In this document: one piece after another, positions 14,426 through 30,894 of the stretch
How positions within the stretch are numbered: position 1 is the stretch's first letter
Layout of the letters: the number at the start of each line of letters is the position of its first letter
NCBI GenBank assembly: GCA_938048455.1
Contig: CALIUY010000016.1
Span: 14,796 to 78,795, forward strand
Reading direction: 5' to 3'
DNA length: 64,000 nt
Source of the DNA: an uncultured Desulfobacterales bacterium
GTDB lineage: Bacteria; Desulfobacterota; Desulfobacteria; Desulfobacterales; SpSt-501
Notes under the pieces: model-generated
Told to the model about the DNA's origin: nothing
The model's database searches: none
What the model saw: only the letters and a program-made list of their open reading frames with translations
Translations under genes and position numbers: made by a program

Positions 14426-14436
14426 GCCGGAGGAAA

Positions 14437-14934: not shown

Positions 14935-14979
14935 GGAAAGAATCCTCCGTTCTCGATACCAGGGGTCAAGGCATGGCGG

Positions 14980-14995: not shown

Positions 14996-15024
14996 AAATT
15001 ACGACCTGCTGAGCGGTTGGGAAG

Positions 15025-15035
15025 GTTTCAAGACA
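15025..15035. repeat. 11-mer GTTTCAAGACA (copy 2)
   Basis: Lies in the divergent region between ZraP-like paralogue 3 and the kinase gene. Confidence 0.5.
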
Positions 15036-15182
15036 GACAAGATAGATTAGATCGACAAAAAACAGCAAGTTCAAAAAGCGCCGGATTTTCCGCCCGCGGC
15101 GATTTTGCCGATCCGAGAAAACCCGGCACGCCTTCTTGCCCGCAATCGGGAAAGAGAGTAGGTTGAACTCAGGGAGTCATCC

Positions 15183-16928: not shown

Positions 16929-16942
16929 GGAGGGGCTCATCC

Positions 16943-18304
16943 ATGCAGGCGCTCGATATCCTGATCGCCGAAGACGAGCGCGTCCAGCGCGAAATGCTGC
17001 GCGATTTCCTCGCCGGCCAGGGCCATCGGGTCGTGGAGGCCGAGAACGGGGCCGTCGCTCTGGAAAAAATCAAGGCCGCGACCTTCGATCTCGCGATTTT
17101 GGATTACCGCATGCCCGACCGGACCGGCCTCGAGGTCCTCGAGGAGGCCCGTCGGCTCAACCCCGAGCTCGACGTGATTCTCCTGACCGCTTACGGCACC
17201 GTGGACAGCGCGGTGGCGGCCATGAAGGCGGGAGCGGCCGACTATCTCGGAAAGCCGCTCGACTTGGAGGAACTGCTGTGCGTGATCGAGCGCATCGCCC
17301 GCCACCGCACCCTGCAACGCGAAAACGAACGGCTCCGCGAACAGCTTGCCGAAACGGGTCTGAAACCCGAAGATCTCGTCTTCCGCAGCTCCCCGATGGC
17401 CGAACTCGTCAACCTCGCCGGCCGCGTCGCCGCCAGTCAAGCCACCGTTCTCCTGCGGGGGGAGAGCGGAACGGGAAAGGAGCTCTTCGCGCGCCTGATC
17501 CATCGCCTGAGCCCGCGCGCCGCCAAACCGCTCCTCATCGTGAACTGCGCCGCGCTCAGCGAAACCCTGATCGAAAGCGAGCTCTTCGGCCACGAGCGCG
17601 GCGCTTTCACCGGCGCCACCCAGCGCCGGATCGGCCGCTTCGAGCAGGCCGACGGCGGAACCCTCTTTCTCGACGAGATCGGGGACGTCTCCCCCGCCGT
17701 CCAGGTCAAGCTGCTGCGCCTGATCCAGGAGGGGGAATTCCAGCGCGTCGGCGGAAACCAGACGCTCCGGGCCGATGTGCGCCTGATCAGCGCGACTCAC
17801 CAGGATCTCGAGTCCAAAATCGCCTCCGGCGCCTTTCGGGAAGACCTCTACTATCGCTTGAACGTCGTTTCGCTGTCCATTCCGCCGCTCCGCGAGCGCC
17901 GCGCCGACATCCCGCCGCTTGTCGACCATTTCGTCACCCGCTTCGCCCGCGAAAACCGCAAGGCCCTAAAGGGGGTGAGCCGGGAAGCGATGGACCAGCT
18001 CGTCAAGTACGACTACCCGGGCAACGTGCGCGAGCTCGAAAACATCATCGAGCGGGCCGTCGTTCTCGCCCGCGGGGAGCTCATCACCACGGAGGAGCTG
18101 CCCTTCGGTCGTCGGCAGGCCGGCGAGGAATCTGCAGCCGTGCGGCAAAGCCTGCGTCAGGCTTTGGAACATCTCGAACGGCGCATGATCGCCGAGGCCT
18201 TGGAAGAAGCCGGCGGAAACCAGAGCCGCGCCGCGCAGCGGTTGGGTTTGAGCGAGCGGATGCTGCGCTACAAGCTGAAAAAGTACCGCCTCAAGCCGGC
18301 TTGA
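16943..18304 (+). CDS. Sigma54-dependent response regulator (NtrC/ZraR-like)
   Basis: Receiver (DLAILDYRMPDRTG), AAA+ (GESGTGKE, GAFTGA, FLDEIGD), Fis-type HTH (NQSRAAQRLGLSERMLRYKLKKY). Confidence 0.9.
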   Translation: MQALDILIAEDERVQREMLRDFLAGQGHRVVEAENGAVALEKIKAATFDLAILDYRMPDRTGLEVLEEARRLNPELDVILLTAYGTVDSAVAAMKAGAADYLGKPLDLEELLCVIERIARHRTLQRENERLREQLAETGLKPEDLVFRSSPMAELVNLAGRVAASQATVLLRGESGTGKELFARLIHRLSPRAAKPLLIVNCAALSETLIESELFGHERGAFTGATQRRIGRFEQADGGTLFLDEIGDVSPAVQVKLLRLIQEGEFQRVGGNQTLRADVRLISATHQDLESKIASGAFREDLYYRLNVVSLSIPPLRERRADIPPLVDHFVTRFARENRKALKGVSREAMDQLVKYDYPGNVRELENIIERAVVLARGELITTEELPFGRRQAGEESAAVRQSLRQALEHLERRMIAEALEEAGGNQSRAAQRLGLSERMLRYKLKKYRLKPA

Positions 18305-19679
18305 CCGGCGGGCTTTTGGGTTTCTCCCCGTTGGGAGAAAAGGGGGAGGAGAGGCCGTATTTGCGCATGCGTCGCCAGAGCGTCGTGCGGCTGATTCCGA
18401 GGGCGCGCGCCGCGGCGAGACGATTGCCCCGCAAGCCGGCAAGCACGGTACGGATCTTCTCGGCCTGAGCCGCGGTCTCCGGCGGCGGGCAACAGCGGCT
18501 TTCCGAGACCTCTTCCCGGATTTCCTGCGGCAGGTGTTCCGGCCGGATCAGCTTTTCGCGGCAAGTGACGAAAGCGTACTCGATGATGTTTTCGAGCTCG
18601 CGGATATTTCCGGGGAACGGATAGTCGAGAAGAAGATTCAACACCTCCGGGGCCACTCCCTGGATCTCCCGGCCCTTGATCATGTTGAACCGGCGCACAA
18701 CGTGGTCAACCAACAGGGGAATGTCCTCCCGGCGCTCGCGCAGCGGCGGGAGGCTCACCTTGACGACGTTCAGGCGGTAATAGAGATCTTCCCGGAACCG
18801 CCCCTCGCGCACCTGGGCCTTCAGGTCCAGGTTGGAGGCCGTCACCAGCCGAAAGTCGGATCGCCGCGGCCGGTTCGACCCGAGCGGGGTGAACACTCCG
18901 TCTTCGAGCACACGCAGCAGGTCGGCCTGGAACGCCGTCGAGGTGCTGCCGATTTCATCCAGAAACAGGGTTCCGCGGTCAGCGGCCAGGATCCGGCCGG
19001 ACTTGTCGCGCACGGCCCCCGTAAAGGCGCCCTTGGCGTAGCCGAAGAGCTCGGATTCAAGGAGCGTATCCGGCAGAGCGGCGCAGTTTACGGCGATGAA
19101 CGGGCCGTCGCTGCGCCGGCTGAGGCCGTGGATCGCCCGGGCGATCAGCTCCTTTCCCGAACCGGTCGGTCCCTCGATCAAAACCGCACTGTCGCTCACC
19201 GCGATGTCCGGCAAAAGAGCGAGCAGGGCGCGGATCCGCGGGTGGCGGCCGACAATGTCCTCCGGGGTATAACGCCGATCGATGTGGCGGCGAAGCTGCT
19301 CGATCTCGGTCAAGTCGCGCAGCGTCTCGACGGCCCCCAGGATCCGGCCGTTTTCGTCTTTCAGCGGGGCCACATTGAGGCGCACCATGACCCGTCCGCC
19401 GCCTTTGGCGATCAGGACGACGCGCTGATCGGCGGGGGGGCATTCGCCCTGCAGGCAGTCATCGAGGGGACAGCGGCGGGCGCACAGATCGGCCCGCAGG
19501 ACGTCGAAGCATTTGCGCCCCACGGCCTCGGCGGACGAAAAACCGGTGATCCGCTCGGCGGCGGGATTGAGGTAGGTGACCCGCTTTTGCGCGTCGATCG
19601 TGATCACGCCCTCGCTCACGCTCTCGACGATCGTGCAGCAGTGGGTGGGCGACAGGGTCAGGATGCGGAAACGCGCCAA
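18291..19679 (-). CDS. Sigma54-dependent activator with PAS domain and Cys cluster
   Basis: PAS (VSEGVITIDAQKRVTYLNPAAERITG), Cys cluster CFDVLRADLCARRCPLDDCLQGEC, AAA+ (GPTGSGKE, GAFTGA), C-terminal HTH (NRLAAARALGISRTTLWRRMRKYG). Confidence 0.9.
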   Translation of the reverse strand: MARFRILTLSPTHCCTIVESVSEGVITIDAQKRVTYLNPAAERITGFSSAEAVGRKCFDVLRADLCARRCPLDDCLQGECPPADQRVVLIAKGGGRVMVRLNVAPLKDENGRILGAVETLRDLTEIEQLRRHIDRRYTPEDIVGRHPRIRALLALLPDIAVSDSAVLIEGPTGSGKELIARAIHGLSRRSDGPFIAVNCAALPDTLLESELFGYAKGAFTGAVRDKSGRILAADRGTLFLDEIGSTSTAFQADLLRVLEDGVFTPLGSNRPRRSDFRLVTASNLDLKAQVREGRFREDLYYRLNVVKVSLPPLRERREDIPLLVDHVVRRFNMIKGREIQGVAPEVLNLLLDYPFPGNIRELENIIEYAFVTCREKLIRPEHLPQEIREEVSESRCCPPPETAAQAEKIRTVLAGLRGNRLAAARALGISRTTLWRRMRKYGLSSPFSPNGEKPKSPPVKPA

Positions 19680-19761
19680 GGCGACTCCTTTCGCGCACGG
19701 GGCGCGGTTTCGCCGGCAAGCGCGGCGAAGGGCGGGCTCCAGGCCTTGCCGACGCTTGCCT

Positions 19762-21027
19762 TCAGGGGCAGACGATGATGTTCCGCGCCCAGAGGCAATC
19801 GCCGCAGGTCGGATGGCGGTTGCCGAAGCAGTCCTCCTCGTTGGACTCGGAAAAGTCGCAGCCGCCGCAGTGGACGCAGGGGGAAAAGTCGAAATCGAGC
19901 ACGCGGCGGCGGAAGCTTCGGTATTCCTCCCGGTTCCAGATCGCGGCGATCTCCTCAGCAGCGATGTTGCCCACCACCCAGCGCCGGATCCGTTTCTCGC
20001 GCCCCAGGACGAAGCAGCGGTAGGAATGCATGAGGGGAATGCAGGGGCTGACGCCGCCGTCCCAGGCGACGGCGGCCGCCCCTTGATCGACGAAACGGCA
20101 ATGCCCGTCGGCCTGGGGGTTGCGCGGCCGCGGCGCCAACGGCTCGGCCGCGCAGCCGGACCAGAAGAGCTCGTTCAGGGCCTGCAGGTTCTCCGGCCGG
20201 GCATCCACCCGTGGAGCGGTTACCCGCGGGTAGAAGGGCGACCCGCTGCTCGTCCAAGGCTTTTCGGCCGACATCCAGTAAAGGATTTCCTCTTTCAACT
20301 CCTCCGTGTAGGGCATCAGGTTCGTGAGGATGATGAAAGCGGCCCCCATCTCGAAGGCCAGCCGTCTGAGCCCCTTCAGCTCACTCAAATTCTCGCGCGT
20401 GAGAACGAATTCAATGCCGATCTCGGGCTTCGCCCGGCGCCGTTCGTGGCGCAACAGGCGCAGCTCGCGCAAGTTCTCCTGGACCACCTTCAGATCCGCC
20501 CCCCCGTGTCCGGCGGCGTGGCCCGCGGGGGAAACCCCGTCCACGGAGACCACCAGCCGGTCCAGACCGGCCGCGAGCAAATCGCGGGACATCGAAGGCG
20601 AAAGAAGCAGACCGTTGGTGACGAGCTCCGTCTCCGCGCCCAGGGCGGAGGCGGCGGCGACCATCTCCGCGATCCGGGGGTGCAACAGCGGCTCCCCCAT
20701 GCCCCAGAAAGACATGGCGCGAAACGAGGGAACCCGCCTGAGCGATTCGATCAGGCGCTCGAAAAGATCACCGGCAAGGGTTCCGGTCGGCTCATCCCAG
20801 CTTCTGCGGATGCAGCTTCGGCAGTCGAGGTTGCAGCGTGTCGTCGGCTCGAGATAGATCTTTGTAAGCGGGGGGTCCTGAGGAAAAACCAGCAGCCCAT
20901 GCGGGCTGGGGCGGACTTCCACCGCCGCGCCGGGCTCGAGGCCCCAGCGCCGCCTCAGCGCCTCCGGAAGCACCAAGCGCCCTTCGGCGTCGAGTTCCAG
21001 AACCAGGGGAGGATCGGTCTCAGACAT
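19762..21027 (-). CDS. Radical SAM/SPASM protein with N-terminal AbrB/SpoVT-like domain
   Basis: N-terminal LELDAEGRLVLPEALRRRWGLEPGAAVEV (swapped-hairpin style), CNLDCRSC radical SAM motif, C-terminal Cys-rich CVHCGGCDF..CFGNRHPTCGDCLW. Confidence 0.85.
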   Translation of the reverse strand: MSETDPPLVLELDAEGRLVLPEALRRRWGLEPGAAVEVRPSPHGLLVFPQDPPLTKIYLEPTTRCNLDCRSCIRRSWDEPTGTLAGDLFERLIESLRRVPSFRAMSFWGMGEPLLHPRIAEMVAAASALGAETELVTNGLLLSPSMSRDLLAAGLDRLVVSVDGVSPAGHAAGHGGADLKVVQENLRELRLLRHERRRAKPEIGIEFVLTRENLSELKGLRRLAFEMGAAFIILTNLMPYTEELKEEILYWMSAEKPWTSSGSPFYPRVTAPRVDARPENLQALNELFWSGCAAEPLAPRPRNPQADGHCRFVDQGAAAVAWDGGVSPCIPLMHSYRCFVLGREKRIRRWVVGNIAAEEIAAIWNREEYRSFRRRVLDFDFSPCVHCGGCDFSESNEEDCFGNRHPTCGDCLWARNIIVCP

Positions 21028-21051
21028 GGGATCGGCTCAATCTCGGGCAAC

Positions 21052-21831
21052 TCATTTCGTCTTGCCGCTTTTGGCGCCGGCAGGCGCCGCGGGGAGGCCG
21101 AGCCTGCGCCGCAGTTCGGCCTCCTCGAGAAGCCCGGAGTGATAGCGCGCATCCGGGAAAATGTAGGTCGGCGTTCCGCTCACCCCTTTGCGGGAGAGAA
21201 GCTCGCGGGTTTCCTCGACCACGCCCTCGCCTTCGGCGCACTGGTTTTCGGAGAGATAGCCGTTGTGGAAATCATCCAGGGATTTCTTGTCGCAAATCAC
21301 GGCGATCGACTGCGGCCGCGAATCCTTGTAGGAGTCCAGGGGGAAAAAGAGGATCCGCGCCGTGATCTCTCCTTGAGCGGCAAGCTTCTTCAGCGTCTCC
21401 TCCCCTTTTTTGCAATAGGGGCAGTGCGGGTCGGTGGCGTAATAGAGGGTCTTCGGGCCGTCCCCCAGACGGATCACGGTGAGCGCCTCGAGCCGCTTCA
21501 TCTCTTCGGCCGTGAAGAGGTTCACCTGCTCGATCTTTTCGCGTGTCAGATTGCGGCCGGTTTTCGCCTCATAGAGCTGACCCATGAGGAGATATTCGCC
21601 CGACGGGCCGGTGTAGAAAATGTGGACCCGCTGATTCAGGCGCACCTGGATTTCGCAGAGGTTCTCAAACTCCGTCGGCTGAAGCGCAACCAGGCTCCGG
21701 TCCGGGGCCTCGAAGCGCGAGATCACCTGCTGGATCTTCTCGCGCGGCGGGCACTGCGCGTCGACCTTTCCCGCAAAAAGCGCAATCAAAGCGATCGTCC
21801 CGGCCACCGCAAAGGCTTGGCTTCGTTTCAC
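21052..21831 (-). CDS. DsbC/DsbG-like periplasmic thiol:disulfide isomerase
   Basis: Signal peptide, N-terminal dimerisation-like domain, thioredoxin fold with CPYC. Confidence 0.8.
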   Translation of the reverse strand: MKRSQAFAVAGTIALIALFAGKVDAQCPPREKIQQVISRFEAPDRSLVALQPTEFENLCEIQVRLNQRVHIFYTGPSGEYLLMGQLYEAKTGRNLTREKIEQVNLFTAEEMKRLEALTVIRLGDGPKTLYYATDPHCPYCKKGEETLKKLAAQGEITARILFFPLDSYKDSRPQSIAVICDKKSLDDFHNGYLSENQCAEGEGVVEETRELLSRKGVSGTPTYIFPDARYHSGLLEEAELRRRLGLPAAPAGAKSGKTK

Positions 21832-21888
21832 GGCCGTTCTCCTTTCTTCGACCCCATCGTCGGCTGCACCCTCTCTTCCGCGCCCGAC

Positions 21889-22428
21889 TCAGCGGCCGGG
21901 GAAGCCCGTCTCCACGGGCAGGTTCGCCTCCCGCCACACCGTCCAGCCGTTCACGAGCACGCGGGCGTGGCGGAAACCCGCATCGCGGAAAAACAGGGCA
22001 AGCTCGTGGCTCAAGGAACAGGTCTCCCCGTCGCAGTAAGTGATCACCGGCGTTTCCAGATCCAGGTCGGCCGTTTCCTCGATAAACCGCAGATCGACTT
22101 CCTGGAGCGGAAGGCTGCGGGCTCCGCGGATATGGCCGCGGGCGTATTCTTGGGGAGGCCGCGCGTCAAAGAAGACGGCGGCCCGCGTAAAAAAGAGTTT
22201 TTCCGCCTCCTCGAGCGCGATGTCCATTCGCTCGCCGGTCGGGGCGGTGAACCTTGCGGCGGGCGAAAAATCCCCCACCAGGGGGATCCCGTCCGGCCGC
22301 AGGGCGTTCACCGAAAGCGCGACGGCCACACTCCAGACCAGAAGCGCCGCCGTCTGCCAGGCGGCCCGGCTCCATACCGGCAAGGAGCTTTCGAGGGAGG
22401 AGACGCGTTTGGGGTCGACGTCGGCCAT
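21889..22428 (-). CDS. Membrane-anchored rhodanese-domain protein
   Basis: ORF 21889..22479 trimmed to ATG 22428. One TM helix, then a rhodanese domain (FFDARPPQEYARGHIRGARSLP, active-site loop YCDGETCSLS). Confidence 0.75.
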   Translation of the reverse strand: MADVDPKRVSSLESSLPVWSRAAWQTAALLVWSVAVALSVNALRPDGIPLVGDFSPAARFTAPTGERMDIALEEAEKLFFTRAAVFFDARPPQEYARGHIRGARSLPLQEVDLRFIEETADLDLETPVITYCDGETCSLSHELALFFRDAGFRHARVLVNGWTVWREANLPVETGFPGR

Positions 22429-22462
22429 AGAAACCACTTCTTTTCCTTTCCGGTTTCTGAAT

Positions 22463-22987
22463 TCAAGAATCGAAGTCAAACCGGCTCAGGTAGCCCTCCA
22501 ACCTCCCGCGGGCTTCCTCGTCAAGCTCGGGGCAATCGGCGGCCGACTTCACCCCCTCGGCGGCCCTCGCGGCGAAGACCATGCAGGTCGGCTCCCCGCA
22601 GCGCCGGCAATTGGTCCGCGGCAGCAGCTTCAGGATCTCGAGCACCTGGGGCTTGGGCGCTCCCTCGTCGCTCGGAGTGATCGTGGCGCGGTTCTCCCAG
22701 GCCTGGTTGATTTCGCGTTTCAGCCATTCGAGAATCTTGTCGGCCTCGGCCTCGTCATTCAGGGCGTTGATGGCGATCTCGCGGCCGTGGATGGTGATCA
22801 GTCGGCCGCGCGAACGCAGCACGAGCGCCGGCGGATCCTTCAAATACTCGAACCCGCCCAAAACCGCGTTCAGATAAGGCAGCACCGCGGAGACATCCTG
22901 ATGCAGGGTCGCGATGCAGTGCAGCGACTCAAAGCGCGGATTGCACTCCGCGCGGAAAATCCTCTTGGTGTATCCTTCAAGCAGCAT
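22463..22987 (-). CDS. Fe-S-binding protein with RnfB/CdhD-type N-terminal-cluster motif at its C-terminus
   Basis: Trimmed to ATG 22987 (GGAGGAGG upstream). LPRTNCRRCGEPTCMVFAARAA matches the Cx2Cx4C Fe-S cluster domain pattern. Confidence 0.65.
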   Translation of the reverse strand: MLLEGYTKRIFRAECNPRFESLHCIATLHQDVSAVLPYLNAVLGGFEYLKDPPALVLRSRGRLITIHGREIAINALNDEAEADKILEWLKREINQAWENRATITPSDEGAPKPQVLEILKLLPRTNCRRCGEPTCMVFAARAAEGVKSAADCPELDEEARGRLEGYLSRFDFDS

Positions 22988-23073
22988 ACGACCTCCTCCC
23001 GGCGAACACGCCGCTTCGCCGGCCTGGCTTTTCAGGGATGCGCGGGGCCGTAGCCGACCTCGAAGACAGGCAT

Positions 23074-23268
23074 TCAATGGCGCGCGAGCGCTTTCTCCAC
23101 CCGCTTGAGCAGCTCCTCGCGCACGAAGGCCAGCGCCTCCTCGGCCTGCCCGTCGAAGGCGATCGCGAGCAGCCGCTGCACCTCCTCGGGCCCGAGCGCA
23201 ATCAGAACCGGTTTCAACGGAAAGCTCACCTTCTCCTCCTCACGATGGGTTTCCCGATCGCCGGTCAT
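23074..23268 (-). CDS. Hypothetical small protein (64 aa)
   Basis: The ORF starts 3 nt after the stop of the upstream gene. Helical, acidic sequence (LIALGPEEVQRLLAIAFDGQAEEALAFVREELLKRVEKAL). No family recognised. Confidence 0.45.
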   Translation of the reverse strand: MTGDRETHREEEKVSFPLKPVLIALGPEEVQRLLAIAFDGQAEEALAFVREELLKRVEKALARH

Positions 23269-23271
23269 TTG

Positions 23272-24420
23272 CTATTCGACCACACCGGTCACCATCACCT
23301 GGAGCGCCGGACGGGCGGGGTGATCGGTTTCGATCACCACCATGTCGGCGATCCGGCCGGGCTCCTTGCGGGTGCTGAAAATCGTGAGCTCGTAGACCGT
23401 CCCCGAAGGACCGCTTTTCTGGGCCAACTGAAAGCGAATGTCGCGTCCTTTCACGGCCCGGAGGTTCCGGATGGCGAAGGGCCGCTCGGGGCGCGGCAGG
23501 ATTCGGGCGACGGCGCTCGCCGTCTCTCCCGCTTTCGCCCGCAACAGGACACTTTTGGGCTGGATGTCGGCGAAGGCCTCGACCCGCCCGCTGAGCATCA
23601 GCTCCAGAACAGCGGCGGCGGGGTCGTTGGTGTGCACCACCACCGCTTCGCGGATATCCCGGCCGGCGTATCCCGCGGTCTTGAATTCCACCCGGATCGT
23701 GCCTTGGCCTCCGGCAGGGATGAGCCTCGTCGACGAGGCCGCCGTGCAGCCGCAACCCGTTTTCAGCTTTTCGATTCGCAGCTCGGCCGTCCCCCGGTTC
23801 TCGACCACGAATTCATGACGCACGAGGTCGCCCTCGATGGCCGTGCCGAAGTCGTGGTGGGGTTTTGGCACCACAACGGCAGGGGAGCCGGCCTCGGCGA
23901 CGCCGCTGCCGCCAGCGGACAGCCAGAAGATCGCCAGCAGCAACGGCGCGGTTTTGCCGGCCGCCCGGCGGGCGAAAAACACGCTGTAAAAAAGGACCAG
24001 CGCCACGGCGAGAAACAGGCCGTCCCGCAGCAAAACCCAGTGGGTCGCCAGCGCCGGGCCCTCGCTTCCGGTGCTGAAGCAGCCGCAGTGGACGTCCAGG
24101 CCGCGGGCGGCGTTGAAAGCGAGCGCGCCGACAAACACCAGCAGCAGACCGTTGGCCGACAGCACGGCGCCGGGGAGCCAAAAACCGGTGATCAAGCACA
24201 GACCGAGGAAAAGCTCCATCCACGGAAGCGCCAGCGCGACCAGATGCACGAGGACATCGGGAAGGATTTGATAATTGTAGACGTCCTTGGCGAAGGCCGC
24301 CGGGTGGGCGATCTTGTCCAGGCTCGCGTAGACGAAGATCCCCCCCAGGAGCAACCGGGCCCCGAGCTGCATCCAATCGGCGGCCCCCCTGCGCAGCGGA
24401 CGCCCGGACTCAGTGTGCAT
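23272..24420 (-). CDS. MauE/DoxX-family membrane protein fused to a DUF1573-like beta-sandwich domain
   Basis: Trimmed to ATG 24420, which overlaps the upstream stop by 11 nt. The N-terminal 4-TM region has CGCF; the C-terminal HDFGTAIEGDLVRHEFVVENRGTAELRIEKLKTGCGCT is typical of DUF1573. Confidence 0.75.
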   Translation of the reverse strand: MHTESGRPLRRGAADWMQLGARLLLGGIFVYASLDKIAHPAAFAKDVYNYQILPDVLVHLVALALPWMELFLGLCLITGFWLPGAVLSANGLLLVFVGALAFNAARGLDVHCGCFSTGSEGPALATHWVLLRDGLFLAVALVLFYSVFFARRAAGKTAPLLLAIFWLSAGGSGVAEAGSPAVVVPKPHHDFGTAIEGDLVRHEFVVENRGTAELRIEKLKTGCGCTAASSTRLIPAGGQGTIRVEFKTAGYAGRDIREAVVVHTNDPAAAVLELMLSGRVEAFADIQPKSVLLRAKAGETASAVARILPRPERPFAIRNLRAVKGRDIRFQLAQKSGPSGTVYELTIFSTRKEPGRIADMVVIETDHPARPALQVMVTGVVE

Positions 24421-25408
24421 GCCCAGCCTCCTTTCCGTTGAGGCAAGAAAGGCCGCAGAGGAGTTCGCCGTTGCCGCAGTCCGCGGTTTCGAACTGGAAG
24501 ACCGGATGATCGATCCCGAAGCGCTCGCGGAGATGGCATCGCAGCGTCTGGGCCAGAGCCTCCGTGCGGCTGACCGCCTGATCGGGCACGACCACGTGGC
24601 AGGAAAAGGCCACGCCGCTCGAGGAGAGATTCCAGGCATGGAGGTAGTGAACGCTCCGGACGCCGGGGATCTTTTCCATATCGCGCTTCACGGTCGCAAG
24701 ATCCAGCCCCCGGGGCGTGGAATTCATGAGGATCAGGCCCGATTCGCGGGCGATGCTCCAGGAATTCTTGAGGATGAAGATCACGATGGCGAACGAAAGC
24801 AGCGGGTCGAGCCAATACCAGGGACGCACGGTGAGAATGGCCCCCCCGATCAACACGGCGACCGAGGTCAGCATATCGCCCACCATGTGCCAGAACGCGC
24901 CGCGCACGTTGAGGCTGTGCCGGGCGTCCCGATGAAGAAGCCAGGCCGACAGGCCGTTTCCCGCGACCCCCACCGCGGCAAGCCCCATCACGAGCTCCCC
25001 CGTCACCACCGTGGGATGCCGCAAGCGATCAACGGCTTCGACGAGGATGACCGCCGAGGCCCCCGCGAGCAGGGCGACCTGCACGAGCGCGGCCAACACC
25101 TCGGCGCGCCGAAAGCCGAAGGTGTGCCGCACGGAGGCACCGCGCCGACCGATGCGGAAGGCGAAATAGGCGATCATCACGGCTGCGAAATCGCCGAAAT
25201 TGTGCGTGGCATCCGAGATGAGCGCCATGCTGCCGGCGGCGAGTCCCCCCGCCACCTGAGCGAGGGGAATCAAGAGATTCAACCCCAGGGTGACGAGAAG
25301 GCGGGTGCCGGTGTGTCCGTCCCCCTCTTCGGCGGGGACCGACCCGGAACCCCCTCCAGGGGTCGCCGGAGGCGGAGTTTCAAGCGGAAAGCCGTGCCGC
25401 GTGCTCAT
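24410..25408 (-). CDS. Cation diffusion facilitator (CzcD/ZitB-like) metal exporter
   Basis: ISDATHNFGD and WHMVGD (HxxxD-type) motifs in TM helices; C-terminal cytoplasmic domain. The ATG 25408 start is preferred over TTG 25441. Confidence 0.85.
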   Translation of the reverse strand: MSTRHGFPLETPPPATPGGGSGSVPAEEGDGHTGTRLLVTLGLNLLIPLAQVAGGLAAGSMALISDATHNFGDFAAVMIAYFAFRIGRRGASVRHTFGFRRAEVLAALVQVALLAGASAVILVEAVDRLRHPTVVTGELVMGLAAVGVAGNGLSAWLLHRDARHSLNVRGAFWHMVGDMLTSVAVLIGGAILTVRPWYWLDPLLSFAIVIFILKNSWSIARESGLILMNSTPRGLDLATVKRDMEKIPGVRSVHYLHAWNLSSSGVAFSCHVVVPDQAVSRTEALAQTLRCHLRERFGIDHPVFQFETADCGNGELLCGLSCLNGKEAGHAH

Positions 25409-25445
25409 GGACAGGTTTTCCCGACACCCGGGCGGCGGCAAAAAA

Positions 25446-26162
25446 TCATGCCGACCAGAGAAGCCAAACCGGGTTGAGCAGAAAGTAGATCCCCAGCAGG
25501 CCGATCACGGCCCCGGCCGCCTTGCGGAACCAGGCTCCGGCCCCCTGCCAGGCGCTGTTTTCGACGAGCCGCCGGACGGCCGCGGTCGAACTGCCGGCGA
25601 CGGCGATCGGCAGGCAGTGGCCGATCCCGAAAAGAAGGATCAAGGCGATCCCCTGGAGCGGTTCCCGCTGAACGGTGATCATGGCCAGAATGGGGGCGAT
25701 GAATCCGAAGGTGCAGGAACCGGACAGGATGCCGTAGCCCAGTCCCAGAGCGAAAGCGCCGCGGCGGCCCCGGAAATTCAAGCGGTAGAGCAGGCTGCCC
25801 GAGGCCGAGCAGGACTCGACCCCCATCATGCCGAGCGCGACCCAGATCAGGACCGCACCCACGAGGATCTGCCACCAGGAACCGATATCCCCCAACATCC
25901 GGCCGAGAAGCGCGCATGCCGCTCCGATCAGACCGATCGTGAGAAAAAGCCCGGCGCTGAAGAGCCCGGCGTAAACCGCGGCCTGCCGGGGAACGAGCGC
26001 TTTTTCCTGGCCGCCGACGTAGGCGACGATCAGCGGGATCGAGGCGAGATGGCAGGGGCTGAAGAGCACGCTGACCATCCCCCAGATGAAGGCGCCGGCG
26101 GCGGCAAGCCCGCTTCCTCCGACCATCCACTCGTTTGCGGCAACAAAAAGCGCTTCCAGCAC
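25446..26162 (-). CDS. CcdA/DsbD-type thiol-disulfide electron-transfer membrane protein
   Basis: LFSPCHLASIPL and SGSCTFGF half-site Cys motifs; 6-TM architecture. Confidence 0.85.
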   Translation of the reverse strand: MLEALFVAANEWMVGGSGLAAAGAFIWGMVSVLFSPCHLASIPLIVAYVGGQEKALVPRQAAVYAGLFSAGLFLTIGLIGAACALLGRMLGDIGSWWQILVGAVLIWVALGMMGVESCSASGSLLYRLNFRGRRGAFALGLGYGILSGSCTFGFIAPILAMITVQREPLQGIALILLFGIGHCLPIAVAGSSTAAVRRLVENSAWQGAGAWFRKAAGAVIGLLGIYFLLNPVWLLWSA

Positions 26163-26172
26163 GACACTCTCC

Positions 26173-27075
26173 TCAGCGGATGCCGATCTGCGCGAGCACC
26201 CGGTTCACCTCGACCTCGGGGAAAAACCCTTCGTGGCGGAAGACCTCTTTGCCCTGGCGGTCAAAAAAGACCTGGACCGGAATCGCCCGGATCCCGTAAC
26301 GGGCGGCGAGAAGTTTCTCCTCGCCCACATGAACGAACACGACGTTCAAGCGCGGCCCATGCGCTTGGCGGAGCTTTTCGAGGATGGGCTGCATCATGTC
26401 GCACGGCACACAGCCGGAGGCCCCGAACTCCACGAGTGTGGGCTTCCCGGAAAAACGCGCCCGATCGACGGGATTGTCCTGCGCGGTCTCGGCCTTGCTT
26501 TGGAGCCAGGAGGCGTTGACCTCCAGGGGAACCCTTTTTTCGAGTGCCGCGAGAAAATCGACGACGGCCTGCTCCTGTTTTTGCTGCAGGAGCATCTGAC
26601 GGATCGCCCCCGAGACCTGCTCGTAGGGCGCCCCGCCGATCATCTCCCGGTTCTGCTCGTAGAAGGCTCGGACTTCGGTCTGGGAGACGCTCGCTTTGGC
26701 GCTTAGGCGACGGAAGAGAGCTTCGACCGCCTGGTCCTCCGATACCCCGGGGCCTGCGAGTCCCTGGCGCTTTGCTTCGCGAACGAGGATCCGACGGCCG
26801 GCCTCGCGCTCCAAAAGAAAGAAGCGGTTTCTCTCGAGCTGAGGCCTCCAGTCCGAGGGCGCCTCCTGCAACAGCCGCTCCAGCTCCTCGGCACGGATTT
26901 CCAGCTCTTCGCTTCGGAAGAGCACCGCGGCGGGAAGCGCGGACAGGCGCGCCGCACGCAGCACCCCTCCCGCCAGGCCGGGATAGCGTTCGTCTACGGT
27001 CGCCGCGGCGGCGGGGGAGGCGGCGAAAGCGAACACGGAGATCAGGAGCAAGACAAACGCCGCGGCCGCTTTCAT
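26173..27075 (-). CDS. Periplasmic SurA-N-like chaperone domain fused to thioredoxin (CVPC)
   Basis: Trimmed to ATG 27075 (ATGA overlap with the upstream stop). Signal peptide MKAAAAFVLLLISVFAFA, a helical chaperone-like region, then EFGASGCVPCDMM..AIPVQVFF. Confidence 0.75.
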   Translation of the reverse strand: MKAAAAFVLLLISVFAFAASPAAAATVDERYPGLAGGVLRAARLSALPAAVLFRSEELEIRAEELERLLQEAPSDWRPQLERNRFFLLEREAGRRILVREAKRQGLAGPGVSEDQAVEALFRRLSAKASVSQTEVRAFYEQNREMIGGAPYEQVSGAIRQMLLQQKQEQAVVDFLAALEKRVPLEVNASWLQSKAETAQDNPVDRARFSGKPTLVEFGASGCVPCDMMQPILEKLRQAHGPRLNVVFVHVGEEKLLAARYGIRAIPVQVFFDRQGKEVFRHEGFFPEVEVNRVLAQIGIR

Positions 27076-27452
27076 TTGACCCCCATCTTCGCCAGTTGCT
27101 CGACGATCGCCTTTTCGCTCATGAACCCCATGTGGCGAAAGACTTCCTTTCCGTTCTTGTCGAAGAAGATCTGTGTGGGAATGGCCCGGATGCCGAAGCG
27201 CCGGGCCTGCTCGGGATAGCGATAGATATCGATGACGATCACCGCCGCGCGGTCCCGGTAATCCTGCTCGACCTTTTTGAGGATCGGGGCCATCAGCTTG
27301 CAAGGCACGCACTGGTCGGACCCCAGGTCGAGCAGGGTCACCATGCCTTGGACCGGAACGTGGCGAAAGTCCTCCGCCGCGGCTTGCGCCGAACCGCAGG
27401 AGACGAGGATGAGGAAAGCCAGGAGCGATCCTGCCCGGCGCACCGTATTCAT
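27072..27452 (-). CDS. Periplasmic thioredoxin (CVPC)
   Basis: Signal peptide, LLDLGSDQCVPCKLM, AIPTQIFF cis-Pro region. Confidence 0.85.
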   Translation of the reverse strand: MNTVRRAGSLLAFLILVSCGSAQAAAEDFRHVPVQGMVTLLDLGSDQCVPCKLMAPILKKVEQDYRDRAAVIVIDIYRYPEQARRFGIRAIPTQIFFDKNGKEVFRHMGFMSEKAIVEQLAKMGVK

Positions 27453-27868
27453 CCGCAGCAGCCTCCGAAAGCCGTCCGGAGCGCCGCGCCTTCCCGCTCC
27501 GCGCAGGCGGCGCGAACGGCTTCTTTCACGCGACGCACATCCTGCGGATGGAGCTCGAAGTTTTTGTTCTTTTCGATTCCCAGCTCCGTGAGCACGATGT
27601 GGCGGAAGGATTCGATGCCGGCCCGCCGGAGGGTCGCCCGGGCGCAGCCGACGGGACAGCCGTCGATCGCCGCGATCAGCGGCACATCATTCGCGGACTG
27701 AATGAAGCCCTGAAGCCCGCCGCCGATTCCGGCGAGGCAATACATCGTCCCGAACCTTTCCTGCGTGAGCTCCACCGCGGCCTGGTTGGCGATCTGCCCC
27801 ACATTCGAGCCGCCCGAGCAGGCGAGAATCATCACCGCATTGCCGTTCGCGCAACAATTGTCAACCAT
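27449..27868 (-). CDS. DGC-domain putative metal-binding protein
   Basis: ILACSGGSNVGQIANQAA and AIDGCPVGCA motifs, characteristic of the DGC domain. Confidence 0.75.
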   Translation of the reverse strand: MVDNCCANGNAVMILACSGGSNVGQIANQAAVELTQERFGTMYCLAGIGGGLQGFIQSANDVPLIAAIDGCPVGCARATLRRAGIESFRHIVLTELGIEKNKNFELHPQDVRRVKEAVRAACAEREGAALRTAFGGCCG

Positions 27869-27978
27869 CGATGTCTCCTCCGGAAAGAAATTCGTTCAGG
27901 GTCGCGCAACCGAACCGTCATTCCGGACGGGGTCCGCGATCCTGAGGGATCGGGAACTGCGGACACGAGTGGATCCCT

Positions 27979-28030
27979 GAAAACAAAACCCCGACGCCAC
28001 CCCCTGCGGACATCCTCCGGGCGGCGCCGG
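27979..28030 (-). terminator. Rho-independent terminator after the small thioredoxin gene
   Basis: RNA CCGGCGCCGCCC...GGGGUGGCGUCGG forms a 12-bp stem (two G-U pairs), followed after 2 nt by UUUUGUUUU. Confidence 0.7.
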
Positions 28031-28049
28031 AGCGGTTTTCGCTTCCGGC

Positions 28050-28283
28050 TCAACGCTTGAGCCACTGCTTGACTTCTTCTTTGGTGGGAATCTTACCGAC
28101 GCATTTCACCTCTCCATCCACCACCACGGAAGGGGTGCCGAACACTCCGTAGTCGGCGATTTTCAGCATGTCGGTCACCTTCTCGACCACGGCATCGGCA
28201 CCGACCTCCGCCAAGGCTTCTTTGACGATGCGCTCGGTCTGCTGGCACTTGGGGCATCCGGGCCCCAGCACTTTGATGTTCAT
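28050..28283 (-). CDS. Small thioredoxin-fold protein (redox-active disulfide protein 2 type, CPKC)
   Basis: 77 aa. MNIKVLGPGCPKCQ...GTPSVVVDGEVKCVGKIPTKEEV. Confidence 0.85.
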   Translation of the reverse strand: MNIKVLGPGCPKCQQTERIVKEALAEVGADAVVEKVTDMLKIADYGVFGTPSVVVDGEVKCVGKIPTKEEVKQWLKR

Positions 28284-28367
28284 CTTGCCGAATCTCCTTT
28301 CCCCTCACGGTTCTTCTGGAAGAATTACATAACTTCCGCCCGATCGCAAGGCGTGCCGATCTCGTCG

Positions 28368-28868
28368 TCATCCGCCGGCGGCCGCTCGAAGCCACTCTCG
28401 AAGCTGGCTGCGCGCGGGAACCCGGCCGACGGCGACCACCTTGCCGTTGATCACGAGCGCCGGGCTGCCCATCACCCCGTAACAGGCGATTTCCTGGATG
28501 TCGCGCACGTGCTCGAGGTCGGCGGGGAGCTTGAGCTCGGCGAGAACCGCCATCAGGTCTTTCTCGAGGCGGTCGCATTGCGGGCAGCCGGGCCCCAGGA
28601 CCTTGATCCTCAGCCCGCCTTCTTCTGTTTCGGGAAGCGGCTGCCCGATGAACTTGCGGTACTCCCGGTAGAGAGCCGCGCGATAGGACTCCCGGGCCGA
28701 GGGAACGACATAGTTCTTTTCGCTCACCCGGGCGAGCAGGGCTTCTTCGATGACGGCACGATCCCGGTCGGCGAAATCCCGTGCGACCTCTTCCAGAATG
28801 GATTTCAGGCCGATGATGCCGACGAGATGGCTGCCGATGCGAATCTGGATTACTTCCGTGTCGCCCAT
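28368..28868 (-). CDS. Two-domain protein: unknown N-terminal domain plus small thioredoxin fold (CPQC)
   Basis: Trimmed to ATG 28868 (AGGAG 8 nt upstream). The C-terminal IKVLGPGCPQCDRL...GSPALVINGKVVAVGRVP is paralogous to 28050-28283. Confidence 0.75.
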   Translation of the reverse strand: MGDTEVIQIRIGSHLVGIIGLKSILEEVARDFADRDRAVIEEALLARVSEKNYVVPSARESYRAALYREYRKFIGQPLPETEEGGLRIKVLGPGCPQCDRLEKDLMAVLAELKLPADLEHVRDIQEIACYGVMGSPALVINGKVVAVGRVPARSQLREWLRAAAGG

Positions 28869-28893
28869 GATGCCGCTCCTGTCCTCACGGGAT

Positions 28894-30309
28894 TCAGAAA
28901 AAGGTTCCGAACAGCATTCCGCAGACCGTGGAAAGAACAATGACCAAGCTGCAATAAAGCACGGTTTTCTGGGTGCCGATGACGCTGCGGATGACGAGCA
29001 TGTTGGGCAGGCTGAGCGCCGGGCCGGCAAGCAGCAGCGCGAGCGCCGGGCCCTTGCCCATGCCGGCGGAGATCAGGCCCTGCAGGATCGGAACCTCGGT
29101 CAGGGTGGCGAAGTACATGAAGGCCCCGACCACGGCGGAAAAGAGATTGGCCCCCAGCGAGTTTCCGCCGACCCAGCGCTTGACCCACTCCGAGGGGATG
29201 ATGCCCTCCGTGCCGGGCTGCCCCAGAAGCAGACCGGCCACGAGCACCCCGCCGAGAAGAAGAGGGGTGATCTGCTTGGCGAAATCCCAGGAGGAAAGAA
29301 ACCAGGACTCCGTTTCCCCCCGGGTCGAGGCGAGAAGCCAGCCGAAGACCAGGATCCCGGCCGAAAAGGCGGCAAGCGGCCGGCCGGGGAAGAAAAGGGC
29401 GAAGGCGATCACCACCGCAGCACCGACGGCGACCTTGGCCGCTTTCACCCGGAACCAGGCGACGAGGATGCCGCCGAGCGCCGCCGCGGCGATCCCCGCA
29501 AGCCACCACTTCACGGAAAAAACCGCATTCCAGAGCCGGTCGGATGCGTCCTCGGAGCGGCTCCACGTGGCGAAGATCAGGACCATGACAAGCAGGGCGA
29601 ATTGCAGCGCGTTCTGCCACAGGGGACGCGTCACGGGAGCCTCCGGCAGGTGAAGCGCGGCCTGGGCTTTCTGGGCCTCCTCCTTGCGGTAGATCAGGTA
29701 CATGAGGAAACCGATCACGATGCTGAAAAGGATCGCCCCTACGGCGCGGGCGATCCCGATCTCCAGGCCGAGGATGCGTGCGGTCATCACGATGGCGAGC
29801 ACGTTGATCGCCGGACCCGAGTAGAGAAAGGCGATCGCCGGCCCCAAGCCCGCCCCCCGTCTCCAGATGCCGGCGAACAGGGGAAGCACGGTGCAGGAAC
29901 ATACGGCAAGGATGCTGCCGGAAACGGAGGAGACCCCGTAGGCGAGCACCTTAGAGGCGCCGGCGCCGAGGTATTTCATGACCGCCGCCTGGGAGACGAA
30001 GGTGGCGATCGCCCCGGCGATGAAAAATGCGGGCACCAGGCAGAGCAGCACGTGCTCGCGGGCATACCACTTTGTCAGCGCAAGCGAGGAGATCACCGCC
30101 TCTTGCAGGCGCGCGCTCTCGACCGGAAGGAAATAGAAGACGAGAAACGCCGCCACGATCGCCAGAAGCGGTTTGGCGATGTTGCGCCAATCGATCAGGC
30201 TCGGCTGACCGCCGCTTTCTTCGGTGACGGGGGCGGTACTGTTTTCTACGGATTCTCCGGTTGCCGGATAGGCGGAGGTGGTTTTCATCGGGGTTTTCCT
30301 CTTCTCCAC
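28894..30309 (-). CDS. COG0701/ArsP-type permease
   Basis: 471-aa polytopic protein. AVCSCTVLPLFAGIWRRGAGLG signature and a duplicated half. Paralogue of 1-543. Confidence 0.85.
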   Translation of the reverse strand: MEKRKTPMKTTSAYPATGESVENSTAPVTEESGGQPSLIDWRNIAKPLLAIVAAFLVFYFLPVESARLQEAVISSLALTKWYAREHVLLCLVPAFFIAGAIATFVSQAAVMKYLGAGASKVLAYGVSSVSGSILAVCSCTVLPLFAGIWRRGAGLGPAIAFLYSGPAINVLAIVMTARILGLEIGIARAVGAILFSIVIGFLMYLIYRKEEAQKAQAALHLPEAPVTRPLWQNALQFALLVMVLIFATWSRSEDASDRLWNAVFSVKWWLAGIAAAALGGILVAWFRVKAAKVAVGAAVVIAFALFFPGRPLAAFSAGILVFGWLLASTRGETESWFLSSWDFAKQITPLLLGGVLVAGLLLGQPGTEGIIPSEWVKRWVGGNSLGANLFSAVVGAFMYFATLTEVPILQGLISAGMGKGPALALLLAGPALSLPNMLVIRSVIGTQKTVLYCSLVIVLSTVCGMLFGTFF

Positions 30310-30378
30310 ATCAAGGGGCGCAAAAAATCCCCACCGACATCCCCCCTGAGGGAGGGTTGGACTATGATTGACCTTAGG

Positions 30379-30762
30379 TCATGAAAAGGGAACGGATTGC
30401 CTTCCGGTGATGAGCTCTCTGCGGACAAGACGCGCGCGGGATACTTCCTCCAGGATCGCCGGATCTTCCTCCAACCAGGTGGAAAGCTCGCGCAACAGCT
30501 TGGCAGCGAAGGGGTTGGCGGAATCGCGGGAAAGCTCGTAGTTCACCCACAGCCCATCTTTCGAAGATACAACAAAACCCATTTCTTCCAATAACTTAAG
30601 GTGTTTTGATACGGTCGGCTGCGAAATATGCAACAATGCCGTCAACTCGCAAACACATAGGCACCGGCGATGTTGCAAGTATTTAAGGATACGCACCCTG
30701 CTGGGATCGGCCAGCGCTTTCATCGTTCTTGTGAGCAAATTCAAAGACGAAAGAATATTCAT
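30379..30762 (-). CDS. arsR: ArsR/SmtB-family metalloregulator (CVC site)
   Basis: MKALADPSRVRILKYL..RRCLCVCELTALLHISQPTVSKHLKLLEEMGFV. ORF 30379..30879 trimmed to ATG 30762 (alternative 30723). Notably lower GC than the surroundings. Confidence 0.85.
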   Translation of the reverse strand: MNILSSLNLLTRTMKALADPSRVRILKYLQHRRCLCVCELTALLHISQPTVSKHLKLLEEMGFVVSSKDGLWVNYELSRDSANPFAAKLLRELSTWLEEDPAILEEVSRARLVRRELITGRQSVPFS

Positions 30763-30769
30763 GTTGGGC

Positions 30770-30798
30770 AATATAGTAAGGTCCCCGTTGCCTGTCAA
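30770..30798 (-). promoter_or_regulatory. Sigma70-type promoter of the arsR-permease-thioredoxin cassette
   Basis: Reverse strand TTGACA-17 nt-TATATT. The -10 ends 7 nt before ATG 30762, which implies a leaderless transcript or use of ATG 30723. Confidence 0.6.
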
Positions 30799-30894
30799 GG
30801 ATGCTTTCTTGACCGCAAACAACGCGAATGATAAAAAGGGCGCCCATAGTGAACAATTACTGTAAATCCTAAAAGGCATTCATCGATTTAGTTC

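Follow-up and report, generated by a model that had tools for sequence, protein, structure and literature searches.

DsbD/CcdA together with DsbC/DsbG makes up the reductive pathway of Gram-negative bacteria. In Mycobacterium tuberculosis, a DoxX/MauE-type membrane protein and a rhodanese take part in thiol homeostasis as the DoxX-SseA(rhodanese)-SodA complex, a lead for the system described below that differs from it in family branch, in organism and in having a two-domain, cytosolic-type rhodanese. Thioredoxin and CcdA genes are reportedly present in the ars operon of Bacteroides vulgatus described by Li, Mandal and Rosen in 2016. In Pseudodesulfovibrio mercurii ND132, an arsR5-arsP-arsE(PF13192)-DGC(PF08859) operon, named 'operon C', is given as up-regulated by arsenic in the available part of a preprint (10.1101/2022.10.17.512643). 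According to the available part of a second preprint, in which MauE is treated as a generalist, an Escherichia coli strain deleted for dsbB regains motility and PhoA activity when supplied with the MauE of Desulfatibacillum aliphaticivorans or of Caldithrix, and this complementation depends on the CGC motif of a periplasmic loop (10.64898/2026.03.05.709764). Finally, a review table lists TsoB, a rhodanese-DsbD-Trx (thioredoxin) fusion selenoprotein with a UxxxxU motif (PMC13188914). Here we analysed a window of 64,000 nucleotides (nt) from an uncultured Desulfobacterales bacterium (assembly GCA_938048455.1, contig CALIUY010000016.1), in which a run of 11 co-directional open reading frames (ORFs) occupies positions 19762-27868 on the minus strand. 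The run combines disulfide-forming, disulfide-reducing, Fe-S and metal-export genes. We consider it probable that an arsenic-type metalloid resistance island governed by ArsR has its envelope arm for thiol/disulfide (and selenol) chemistry in this run.

The genes of the run were numbered G01 to G11 in the order of transcription (Table 1); L-numbers denote loci of relatives and P-numbers database proteins. The original prediction, made from the letters of the stretch, had counted thirteen genes where the ORF list gives 11. Its description of tight packing on one strand with stop/start overlaps was borne out: ATGA overlaps join G01 to G02 (27452-27449) and G02 to G03 (27075-27072), the CDF exporter gene (G05) and the MauE gene (G06) overlap by 11 nt, and the remaining gaps span 3-57 nt. 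Its domain calls were mostly reproduced as well, since Pfam and NCBIfam models back the DGC, thioredoxin, CcdA, CDF, MauE-DUF1573, Fe-S, rhodanese, DsbC/G and radical SAM/SPASM assignments, but the AbrB part reached a sub-threshold match only.

To define which genes travel together, a search with G06 was carried out; it retrieved 13 loci in Desulfobacterales-type genomes, onto which the proteins of the window were mapped (close loci). CcdA and MauE were found in all 13, and the G02 thioredoxin, G08 and the rhodanese (G09) in 12 each, the single miss of the rhodanese being a contig end. The other members were found less often: SurA-Trx (G03) in seven, CDF and DsbC (G10) in six each, the fused DUF1573 domain and the radical SAM gene (G11) in four each, and DGC (G01) in six of the 11 loci that cover its position. 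Thus, of the genes whose common neighbourhood had been put forward, MauE and rhodanese are syntenic in relatives but DsbC, the radical SAM gene and fused DUF1573 are inconstant, and the run is a mosaic of modules with variable membership and not a fixed 13-gene unit. Judged by gene content, the run appears to recur as an oxidative module (MauE and rhodanese), a reductive module (CcdA/Trx/DsbC), a cytoplasmic module (DGC and G07-G08) and optional CDF and radical SAM genes.

The upstream neighbours are more constant. Paired ArsE-type mini-thioredoxins lie directly upstream on the same strand in each of the 11 close loci that extend to this position, and ArsR lies upstream in 10 of 10. In the loci lacking DGC (L006, L007, L008 and L012), the gap between the ArsE gene and the thioredoxin gene measures 24-60 nt; L011 keeps DGC, with a gap of 46 nt from ArsE to DGC. 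The run is thereby linked to the upstream ArsR/ArsP/ArsE cassette, and in the related loci it is not independent of that cassette. Because ArsE and ArsR stand directly upstream in relatives at small gaps, we take the run and the arsR cassette as one evolutionary unit, even if a terminator between them (see below) may split transcription here.

We then examined a sample of 401 genomes of the phylum, from which 20 kb were fetched around 20 G08 matches from different families. At least one of ArsR, ArsP, ArsE, DGC, Acr3, ArsC and ArsM was present in 17 of these 20 loci, and ArsC directly adjoins G08 in at least six. The pair of CcdA and thioredoxin was found in nine and the pair of MauE and rhodanese in four, and families differ in the arrangement of the genes. 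A Pfam scan of L052 gave the order ArsR-ArsE-DGC-G08-ArsR-ArsC-Acr3-rhodanese-MauE-Trx-CcdA-DUF1573, with junctions that overlap or span 3-24 nt from ArsC onward; in this locus a canonical ars operon encloses the envelope module. Genes of the run's types are also interleaved with acr3, arsC or arsM in L066, L082 and L084, and these three loci and L052 come from different families. This linkage supports the original proposal of an envelope thiol-redox system for a thiophilic metalloid.

Next, we investigated the oxidative part of the run. G06 matches the MauE family PF07291 at 91.3 bits against a cut-off of 27, and its CGC site (C112-G-C114-F) is invariant in all 32 aligned homologues. It also passes the OS_HP2 model NF041425 (119.7 bits against a cut-off of 100), the U/C-G-C motif of that family being CGC here. 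In L002, L008, L009 and L052, the first Cys of the DUF1573 CGC motif is replaced by TGA, which fits an OS_HP2 (seleno)protein family. G06 is the only MauE of the genome (96.5% complete), in which Pfam searches found no DsbB, VKOR or DsbA; two DsbD_TM genes were found, CcdA (G04) and one other. MauE is the only recognisable disulfide-forming enzyme of this genome. By analogy with the enzymes of the preprint, G06 would act as a DsbB-like, quinone-linked oxidase. As MauE is a DsbB-like oxidase there and its CGC is invariant here, the operon would also make disulfides. The original prediction had spoken of electron import; that reductive branch is present, but an oxidative branch has to be added to it.

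Two related loci show MauE in other arrangements. In L048:10720-12342 (+), CDF and MauE form one 540-amino-acid frame (Cation_efflux, ZT_dimer, MauE), a fusion of the genes that overlap in the window. A VKOR-DsbA fusion gene (L047:5576-6799, +) lies within a string running from ArsR/ArsP/ArsE to Trx/CcdA/G08/radical SAM/rhodanese/MauE, so that the genome of L047 has two disulfide-forming enzymes in one cluster.

The rhodanese carries a YCDGETC motif in which both Cys are invariant in 34 of 34 sequences. This invariant CX4C points rather to a redox dithiol than to a sulfur or selenium transferase. Among 11 sequences, 36 Lys and Arg residues precede the membrane anchor and 18 follow it; by the positive-inside rule the domain would face outward, and it is probably periplasmic. 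At E 1e-25, a G09-type rhodanese occurs in 25 of the 401 genomes. Its neighbourhood was examined in 23 of the 24 other genomes, and MauE adjoins it almost everywhere. Markers of ars operons stand beside it in 12 of the 24 for certain and in three more with uncertainty, the uncertain cases being an Acr3 fragment in L079 and two genomes (G390 and G140) judged by proximity of G08 only. In L078:7501-10620 (+), the rhodanese-MauE pair follows a chromate-efflux cassette of MarR, a ChrE rhodanese and ChrA, a second oxyanion-resistance context. A G09-type rhodanese with an in-frame TGA in a 420-amino-acid open frame (G264:C1:3320278-3320763, L067) may be a selenocysteine (Sec) form or a fused form.

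On the reductive side, an LVSC lipobox marks the signal peptide of G02, as read from its sequence, and the DsbC/G-like G10, with 45 bits against 124 and 36 bits against 215, falls short of two NCBIfam equivalog cut-offs. Pfam gave no match to the SurA-like part of G03 even at E 10. An AlphaFold2 model was therefore built from an alignment of nine orthologues (pLDDT 77.8; 83-94 in blocks of the N-terminal domain) and searched against all PDB structures. The only non-thioredoxin matches, over 130-145 residues, were SurA-type chaperones: the peptidyl-prolyl isomerase 8hm3_B (Z 10.1), PEB4/Cj1289 (Z 9.1-9.7; 3rgc_B, 9.1) and SurA (Z 8.3-9.3; 2pv3_B, 9.3), values to be read with the caution that helical domains call for below Z 13. 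Because no other fold was matched, the SurA-N-like call made earlier from the letters is supported at fold level (Z 9-10).

G07 had been described as a 64-amino-acid protein, which was a wrong delimitation. Its stop is a TGA (23074-23076), after which the frame stays open through MPVFEVGYGPAHP until another TGA at 23032-23034. The motif around position 65 is RH-U-MPVFE-x-x-Y-G-P; the same TGA followed by (M/V)PVFE-x-x-Y-G-P is found in L001, L002, L048 and L067, and L047 and the database protein P0235 have Cys in that column. All invariants of the family (P67, V68, F69, E70, Y73 and P75) lie downstream of the TGA. A profile search that reads through stops found the family in 56 of the 401 genomes, and at codon level 27 sequences comprise 11 with TGA, nine with TGT or TGC and seven without a match to the motif pattern. 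About 17 nt after the UGA, 10 of the 11 TGA forms (not L067) have a 4-5-pair hairpin of GGCCG/CGGCC type, with five pairs and a 4-nt loop in eight and four pairs and a 6-nt loop in two; the hairpin of L100 shows a double compensatory change, and the nine Cys forms have none. This places a hairpin resembling a selenocysteine insertion sequence behind the codon. Mean predicted free energy is -9.9 kcal/mol for Sec forms versus -4.2 kcal/mol for Cys forms, with GC contents that differ too (0.67 versus 0.53), and longer stretches fold no better than shuffles. The machinery for Sec insertion is encoded in the genome (selA, 609.6 bits against 267.9; selB, 372.1 against 242.25). From this pattern of an in-frame TGA at a Cys column with conserved coding behind it, G07 is a predicted 78-residue selenoprotein that reads through the TGA.

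No Pfam or NCBIfam model matched G07 at E up to 1. As a consequence, it lies outside the Pfam and NCBIfam identifiers of the 119 selenoprotein families in a 2026 review (PMC13188914), a comparison that leaves aside a few cd and PTHR identifiers, and it is a candidate selenoprotein family beyond those models. Comparison with solved structures gave no meaningful match (best E 7.5), and the ESM Atlas returned unnamed clusters only (scores 0.88-0.91).

G08 is the best-conserved gene of the set. A word-indexed database search returned about 3,800 relatives, nearly all of 174 amino acids, and 120 of the 401 genomes have the gene at E 1e-20; it is thus an abundant, highly conserved Fe-S protein without an assigned role. 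In its AlphaFold2 model (pLDDT 95.3), residues 1-100 superpose on one archaeal TBP repeat (1mp9_B; Z 11.0, root-mean-square deviation 2.4, 91 residues); the next unrelated matches reach Z 6.5. Foldseek gave this match a probability of 1.00 but an E of 0.016, and a profile compared with PDB TBP gave E 0.033. Residues 114-165 are a CFeSP/RnfB-type [4Fe-4S] domain aligned to CFeSP residues 4-55 (E 3.4e-15), with four Cys that at least 90% of the sequences retain. Of the 55 other genomes that possess G07, 22 have it no more than 5 kb from G08 on one contig, many of the others being split across contigs. P0235 joins an N-terminal G07-like domain to a G08-type protein, and P0270, one among 11 longer forms, places a MarR DNA-binding domain ahead of the G08-type part. 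Three longer relatives (P0192, P0245 and P0258) share an N-terminal domain of about 100 amino acids; the idea that it is an Se/S-carrier domain (PF11823) was not supported, one of the three matching at E 0.063.

A DNA-binding regulatory role of G08 would agree with the MarR fusion, the TBP fold and the JGI name 'ArsR family metal-binding transcriptional regulator'; the location of the conserved residues on the helices speaks against it. We also considered that G07-G08 may be an unrecognised Sec and [4Fe-4S] redox module, FTR- or Hdr-like, whose low-potential electrons would reduce disulfides, selenosulfides or As-thiol adducts and power ArsE and CcdA, an idea that we regard as quite unlikely. 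If true, it would give anaerobes a ferredoxin-driven, selenium-dependent means of envelope detoxification and repair inside arsenic islands. As a variant, G08 may be a redox or metalloid sensor domain, in favour of which its fusions to the MarR DNA-binding domain and to G07 can be cited.

The radical SAM enzyme G11 scores 310.5 against a cut-off of 380 for TIGR04317 and 258.6 against 400 for TIGR04311. As Radical_SAM and SPASM domains are present and these scores fall short, we place it as a paralogue in the TIGR04317/TIGR04311 clade of putative metalloenzyme maturases. Its AbrB-like N-terminus resembles MazE/MraZ below threshold (MazE E 0.0028, 18 bits, under a cut-off of 24.7). G11-like genes were found in 27 of the 401 genomes; in seven of the 26 other genomes their distance to G08 or G07 is about 10 kb or less, a recurrent but not obligatory association.

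Upstream of the run, the cluster is headed by an ArsR of 127 amino acids with a CLCVCEL site of the three-cysteine, As(III) type. Its start is placed at the ATG at 30762 and not at 30879, because the promoter at 30798-30770 falls inside the longer ORF. This TTGACA-17-TATATT sequence is the sole sigma-70-like site in 18000-31200; with one found against 1.2 expected in shuffles, it is a consensus match only. A candidate efflux protein of the same unit is the ArsP_1 permease of the cassette, which scores under the cut-offs of the named equivalogs SaoE and SO_0444. An acr3 gene (TIGR00832, 452 bits against a cut-off of 283) lies at 2848-4131, 16 kb from the run; relatives have acr3 inside the run.

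The strong terminator reported between the arsR cassette and the run is real. Fold prediction gives a stem followed by UUUUGUUUU, and the hairpin is kept in L001 and L002, the two closest relatives; a simple terminator scan missed it because its loop is long. For 27869-27978 we reached the same outcome as the original prediction, with neither a sigma-70-like nor a sigma-54-like site found. Of the nested GATCC/GGATC inverted repeats noted there, a GATCC-N4-GGATC palindrome is indeed present at 27951-27938, but its left arm is lost in L001, the closest relative, and it was rejected as an operator. Control by the PAS-type activator encoded downstream (18291-19679) was rejected too: it is kept only in L001, and because no -24/-12 site lies near the run, the activator is not evidently the regulator of the run. 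Perfect sigma-54 sites were found at 10810, 11087 and 34376, away from the run.

Our reading of these data is that the host, an anaerobic relative of sulfate reducers, probably uses the run as the disulfide-forming and disulfide-repairing arm of its arsenic-type island. In the oxidative branch, MauE, as a quinone-linked DsbB-like oxidase with a periplasmic CGC, would make disulfides and most likely hand them to the CX4C rhodanese and to the fused DUF1573 domain (Cys here, Sec in relatives). In the reductive or proof-reading branch, reducing equivalents would cross the membrane through CcdA and reach both CVPC thioredoxins, which would maintain DsbC/G and further periplasmic dithiols in the reduced state. 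Wrong Cys pairs would be reopened by CcdA, the thioredoxins and DsbC/G, with unfolded clients held on the SurA-like domain. On the cytoplasmic side, As(III) would be sensed by ArsR and exported by ArsP; ArsE, DGC with its vicinal Cys pairs and G07/G08 may handle thiol-bound metalloid, provide or sense electrons, or do both. The CDF exporter and the radical SAM enzyme, each present in some genomes and absent from others, would be optional, and the CDF-MauE fusion of L048 may widen the range to divalent thiophilic cations. The purpose would be to protect exported Cys/Sec proteins from binding or mispairing caused by As(III) or other thiophilic metal(loid)s, Cys pairs being either closed quickly into disulfides or repaired under metalloid stress. 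Gene content, motifs, folds, synteny and Sec/Cys pairs were seen directly, and MauE activity is taken from the preprint in a close relative. From these we infer who reduces or oxidises whom and which proteins are clients; induction by arsenic may be supposed by analogy with ND132.

Several observations weigh against this reading. In nine of the 24 other genomes the rhodanese-MauE pair occurs without ars genes nearby; its neighbours there are the heme-synthesis genes ahbC/ahbD/hemB, lgt, a chrA/chrE chromate cassette or a UshA-like (seleno)protein, and in one case a true TIGR04311 radical SAM gene that itself adjoins katG. CDF exporters move divalent cations, not arsenite. A search for RNA runs listed none containing the locus. 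In this genome the strong terminator parts the run from the arsR cassette, and neither site scans nor comparison with relatives found a promoter or ArsR operator for the run. Moreover, a housekeeping role fits because MauE is the genome's sole recognisable disulfide-forming enzyme. On that account the run serves general oxidative folding from a constitutive promoter of its own, with MauE as DsbB, CcdA as DsbD, and DsbC/G, the thioredoxins and the SurA-like chaperone in their usual places, and merely lies beside ars genes. The single MauE in a genome lacking recognisable DsbB, VKOR and DsbA, the upstream terminator, the missing operator and the heme-synthesis or lgt neighbours in several genomes all agree with it, as does the presentation of MauE as a generalist in the available part of the preprint (10.64898/2026.03.05.709764). 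However, the genes are interleaved, and not just adjacent, with acr3/arsC/arsM in L052, L066, L082 and L084, the gap to the ArsE gene is 24-60 nt in L006, L007, L008, L011 and L012, and DGC, ArsE, G08 and CDF belong to no known Dsb system. We regard housekeeping as an unlikely explanation.

The presence of the radical SAM/SPASM enzyme raises another explanation, in which it matures a Cys/Sec-rich exported protein or cofactor together with rhodanese, MauE and DsbC, or the set traffics sulfane sulfur or selenium, metal stress being secondary. The DUF1573/OS_HP2 domain would be an example of a client, Sec and Cys alternate in DUF1573 and in G07, G11 is close to 'metalloenzyme maturase' families, and in L081 a true TIGR04311 member adjoins a G09-type rhodanese. 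This is nonetheless very unlikely in our view: only four of the 13 close loci keep the radical SAM gene, which lies close to G08 or G07 in just seven of 26 genomes, DUF1573 is fused in only four of 13, no precursor-peptide gene was seen, and the rhodanese motif is CX4C, not a single-Cys persulfide loop. Variable membership (DGC 6/11, SurA-Trx 7/13, CDF 6/13, DsbC 6/13, radical SAM 4/13) and a gene order shuffled between families could instead mean that unrelated modules, with separate transcripts and roles, have gathered along a single strand of a stress island. Such a mosaic without common function seems scarcely probable when the core of ArsE, Trx, CcdA, MauE, G08 and rhodanese is kept in 12-13 of the 13 close loci, start/stop overlaps occur within the run, and fusions join its parts: CDF-MauE in L048, MauE-DUF1573 here, G07-G08 in P0235 and, as listed in the review table, rhodanese-DsbD-Trx in TsoB.

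Table 1. Features of the run and of the upstream arsR cassette, in the order of transcription.
Feature	Position	Strand	Basis
Sigma-70-like promoter TTGACA-17-TATATT	30770..30798	-	11/12 consensus positions
ArsR/SmtB repressor	30379..30762	-	HTH_5; NF033788 86 bits (cut-off 55)
ArsP_1 (PF03773) family permease	28894..30309	-	Pfam E 3.1e-68
First ArsE-type mini-thioredoxin (Thioredoxin_3), N-terminal extension, start not fixed	28368..28800	-	PF13192 E 3.6e-24; conserved in relatives
MTH895/ArsE family thioredoxin-like protein, 77 amino acids, CPKC	28050..28283	-	TIGR00412 103 bits (cut-off 62); Pfam E 2.5e-29
Intrinsic-terminator-like hairpin	27980..28033	-	15-pair GC-rich stem 28033-27989, U-tract 27988-27980
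G01, DGC-domain protein, cytoplasmic, CC pairs at both ends	27449..27868	-	PF08859 E 3.8e-34
G02, periplasmic thioredoxin, CVPC	27072..27452	-	PF00085 E 6e-13
G03, exported; SurA-like chaperone domain, then C-terminal CVPC thioredoxin	26173..27075	-	Thioredoxin E 3.9e-10
G04, CcdA (DsbD transmembrane core)	25446..26162	-	PF02683 E 1e-11
G05, CDF-family cation exporter, Cys/His-rich tail	24410..25441	-	TIGR01297 261.6 bits (cut-off 82); Cation_efflux and ZT_dimer
G06, MauE (DsbB-like, CGC site) fused to DUF1573/OS_HP2 domain with CGC motif	23272..24420	-	Pfam, NCBIfam
G07, predicted small selenoprotein, 78 amino acids, Sec65 at 23074-23076	23032..23268	-	TGA/Cys alternation in homologues
G08, 174 amino acids; TBP-like N-domain and CFeSP/RnfB-type [4Fe-4S] C-domain	22463..22987	-	PF04060, Cx2Cx4C
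G09, membrane-anchored rhodanese, invariant YCDGETC (CX4C)	21889..22479	-	PF00581 E 7.4e-17
G10, DsbC/DsbG-like periplasmic disulfide isomerase, CPYC	21052..21831	-	DsbC_N E 3.3e-9, Thioredoxin_2 E 4.6e-13
G11, radical SAM/SPASM enzyme, weak AbrB/MazE-like N-terminus	19762..21027	-	Radical_SAM and SPASM domains

Other features of the window were recorded alongside. A second, canonical arsenic cluster at 610-4131 (-) consists of acr3, a second ArsR/SmtB and an HdrD/GlpC-like CCG Fe-S protein, and an ArsR-Acr3-CCG trio follows the run in L003, L004, L006, L007 and L012. A ZraPSR-like envelope-stress set occupies 13217-18304: genes for a histidine kinase (15162-16928, +) and for a sigma-54 activator of the response-regulator type (16943-18304, +) are accompanied by three Metal_resist/LTXXQ genes (13217-15027, -). 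This set recurs in L009, next to the run of that locus. One perfect sigma-54 match (34376-34390, +) lies just upstream of a response-regulator gene and an operon for a Psr/Nrf-like molybdopterin oxidoreductase (34415-40136), and another (10810-10824, -) lies upstream of a tandem-Usp gene (9843-10778). A further radical SAM protein (8645-9817, +) gave weak matches (best TIGR04317, 57.6 bits) and has the gene of a TauE-family exporter (10969-12060) as its neighbour. Scans of the window for Rfam families and tRNAs returned nothing.

The known kinds represented at this locus are the ArsR/ArsP/ArsE/DGC operon and the MauE pathway (both from preprints), the textbook CcdA/DsbC system, OS_HP2 and the clade of radical SAM maturases. 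The literature searched holds no account of the whole gene set, of its embedding in ars islands, of rhodanese as a partner of MauE, or of the G07 selenoprotein and the TBP-like Fe-S protein, nor a printed description tying MauE or DoxX to arsenic; the statement that this was not a described system thus stands within that literature. Arsenic resistance is usually drawn as cytoplasmic reduction and pumping. The locus and its relatives suggest the following: 1) anaerobes also shield the periplasm; 2) arsenic islands appear to be wired with a full disulfide-forming and disulfide-repairing system that includes the newly recognised MauE oxidase; and 3) the CX4C rhodanese is a candidate for the natural partner in the MauE pathway, which is also given a physiological setting.

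We finally compared the locus with the described systems one by one. Operon C of ND132 shares with it a CVC-type ArsR, a PF03773 permease, a PF13192 ArsE and a PF08859 DGC in the same order on one strand, and because the arsenic-induced operon of ND132 ends in DGC, we assign G01 to the ars cassette. As described in the available part of its source, that operon stops at DGC, whereas here there are two ArsE genes, a terminator and ten more envelope/Fe-S genes. The MauE-centred pathway of Gonzalez et al. (10.64898/2026.03.05.709764), as far as the available part describes it, resembles the present one in the MauE family, in the CGC motif, in the bacterial group of one tested enzyme and in that the present genome lacks recognisable DsbB and VKOR. 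It differs in that MauE is fused here to DUF1573/OS_HP2 inside an ars-type island, with a CX4C rhodanese and not DsbA or MauD as its neighbour; the available part deals with neither rhodanese nor arsenic.

The DsbD/CcdA-DsbC/DsbG pathway is matched by the CcdA membrane core, the periplasmic CXXC thioredoxins and the isomerase of DsbC_N and thioredoxin domains with CPYC; unlike in that pathway, the parts here are separate genes and one thioredoxin carries a SurA-like domain. The two halves of G08 also have counterparts. Its C-domain aligns with the N-terminal domain of the CFeSP large subunit and RnfB, but it has no corrinoid or Rnf parts; its N-domain superposes on the TBP superfamily but comprises one repeat instead of two, with its conserved residues on helices and not on the DNA-binding sheet. 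Finally, the Tso 'three selenoprotein operon' under the ArsR-type TsoR, as it appears in the review table, likewise has a rhodanese with a two-residue X4 motif, a DsbD core and a thioredoxin under an ArsR/SmtB regulator, the UxxxxU of TsoB corresponding to the rhodanese CX4C here. By contrast, the three parts are separate genes in the run, with Cys and not Sec, and score 31.5, 39.1 and 18-19 bits against a TsoB (NF045694) cut-off of 805; an NCBIfam scan of the run found no homologues of TsoA or TsoC. The split rhodanese, DsbD and Trx genes may thus work like TsoB without being members of its family.

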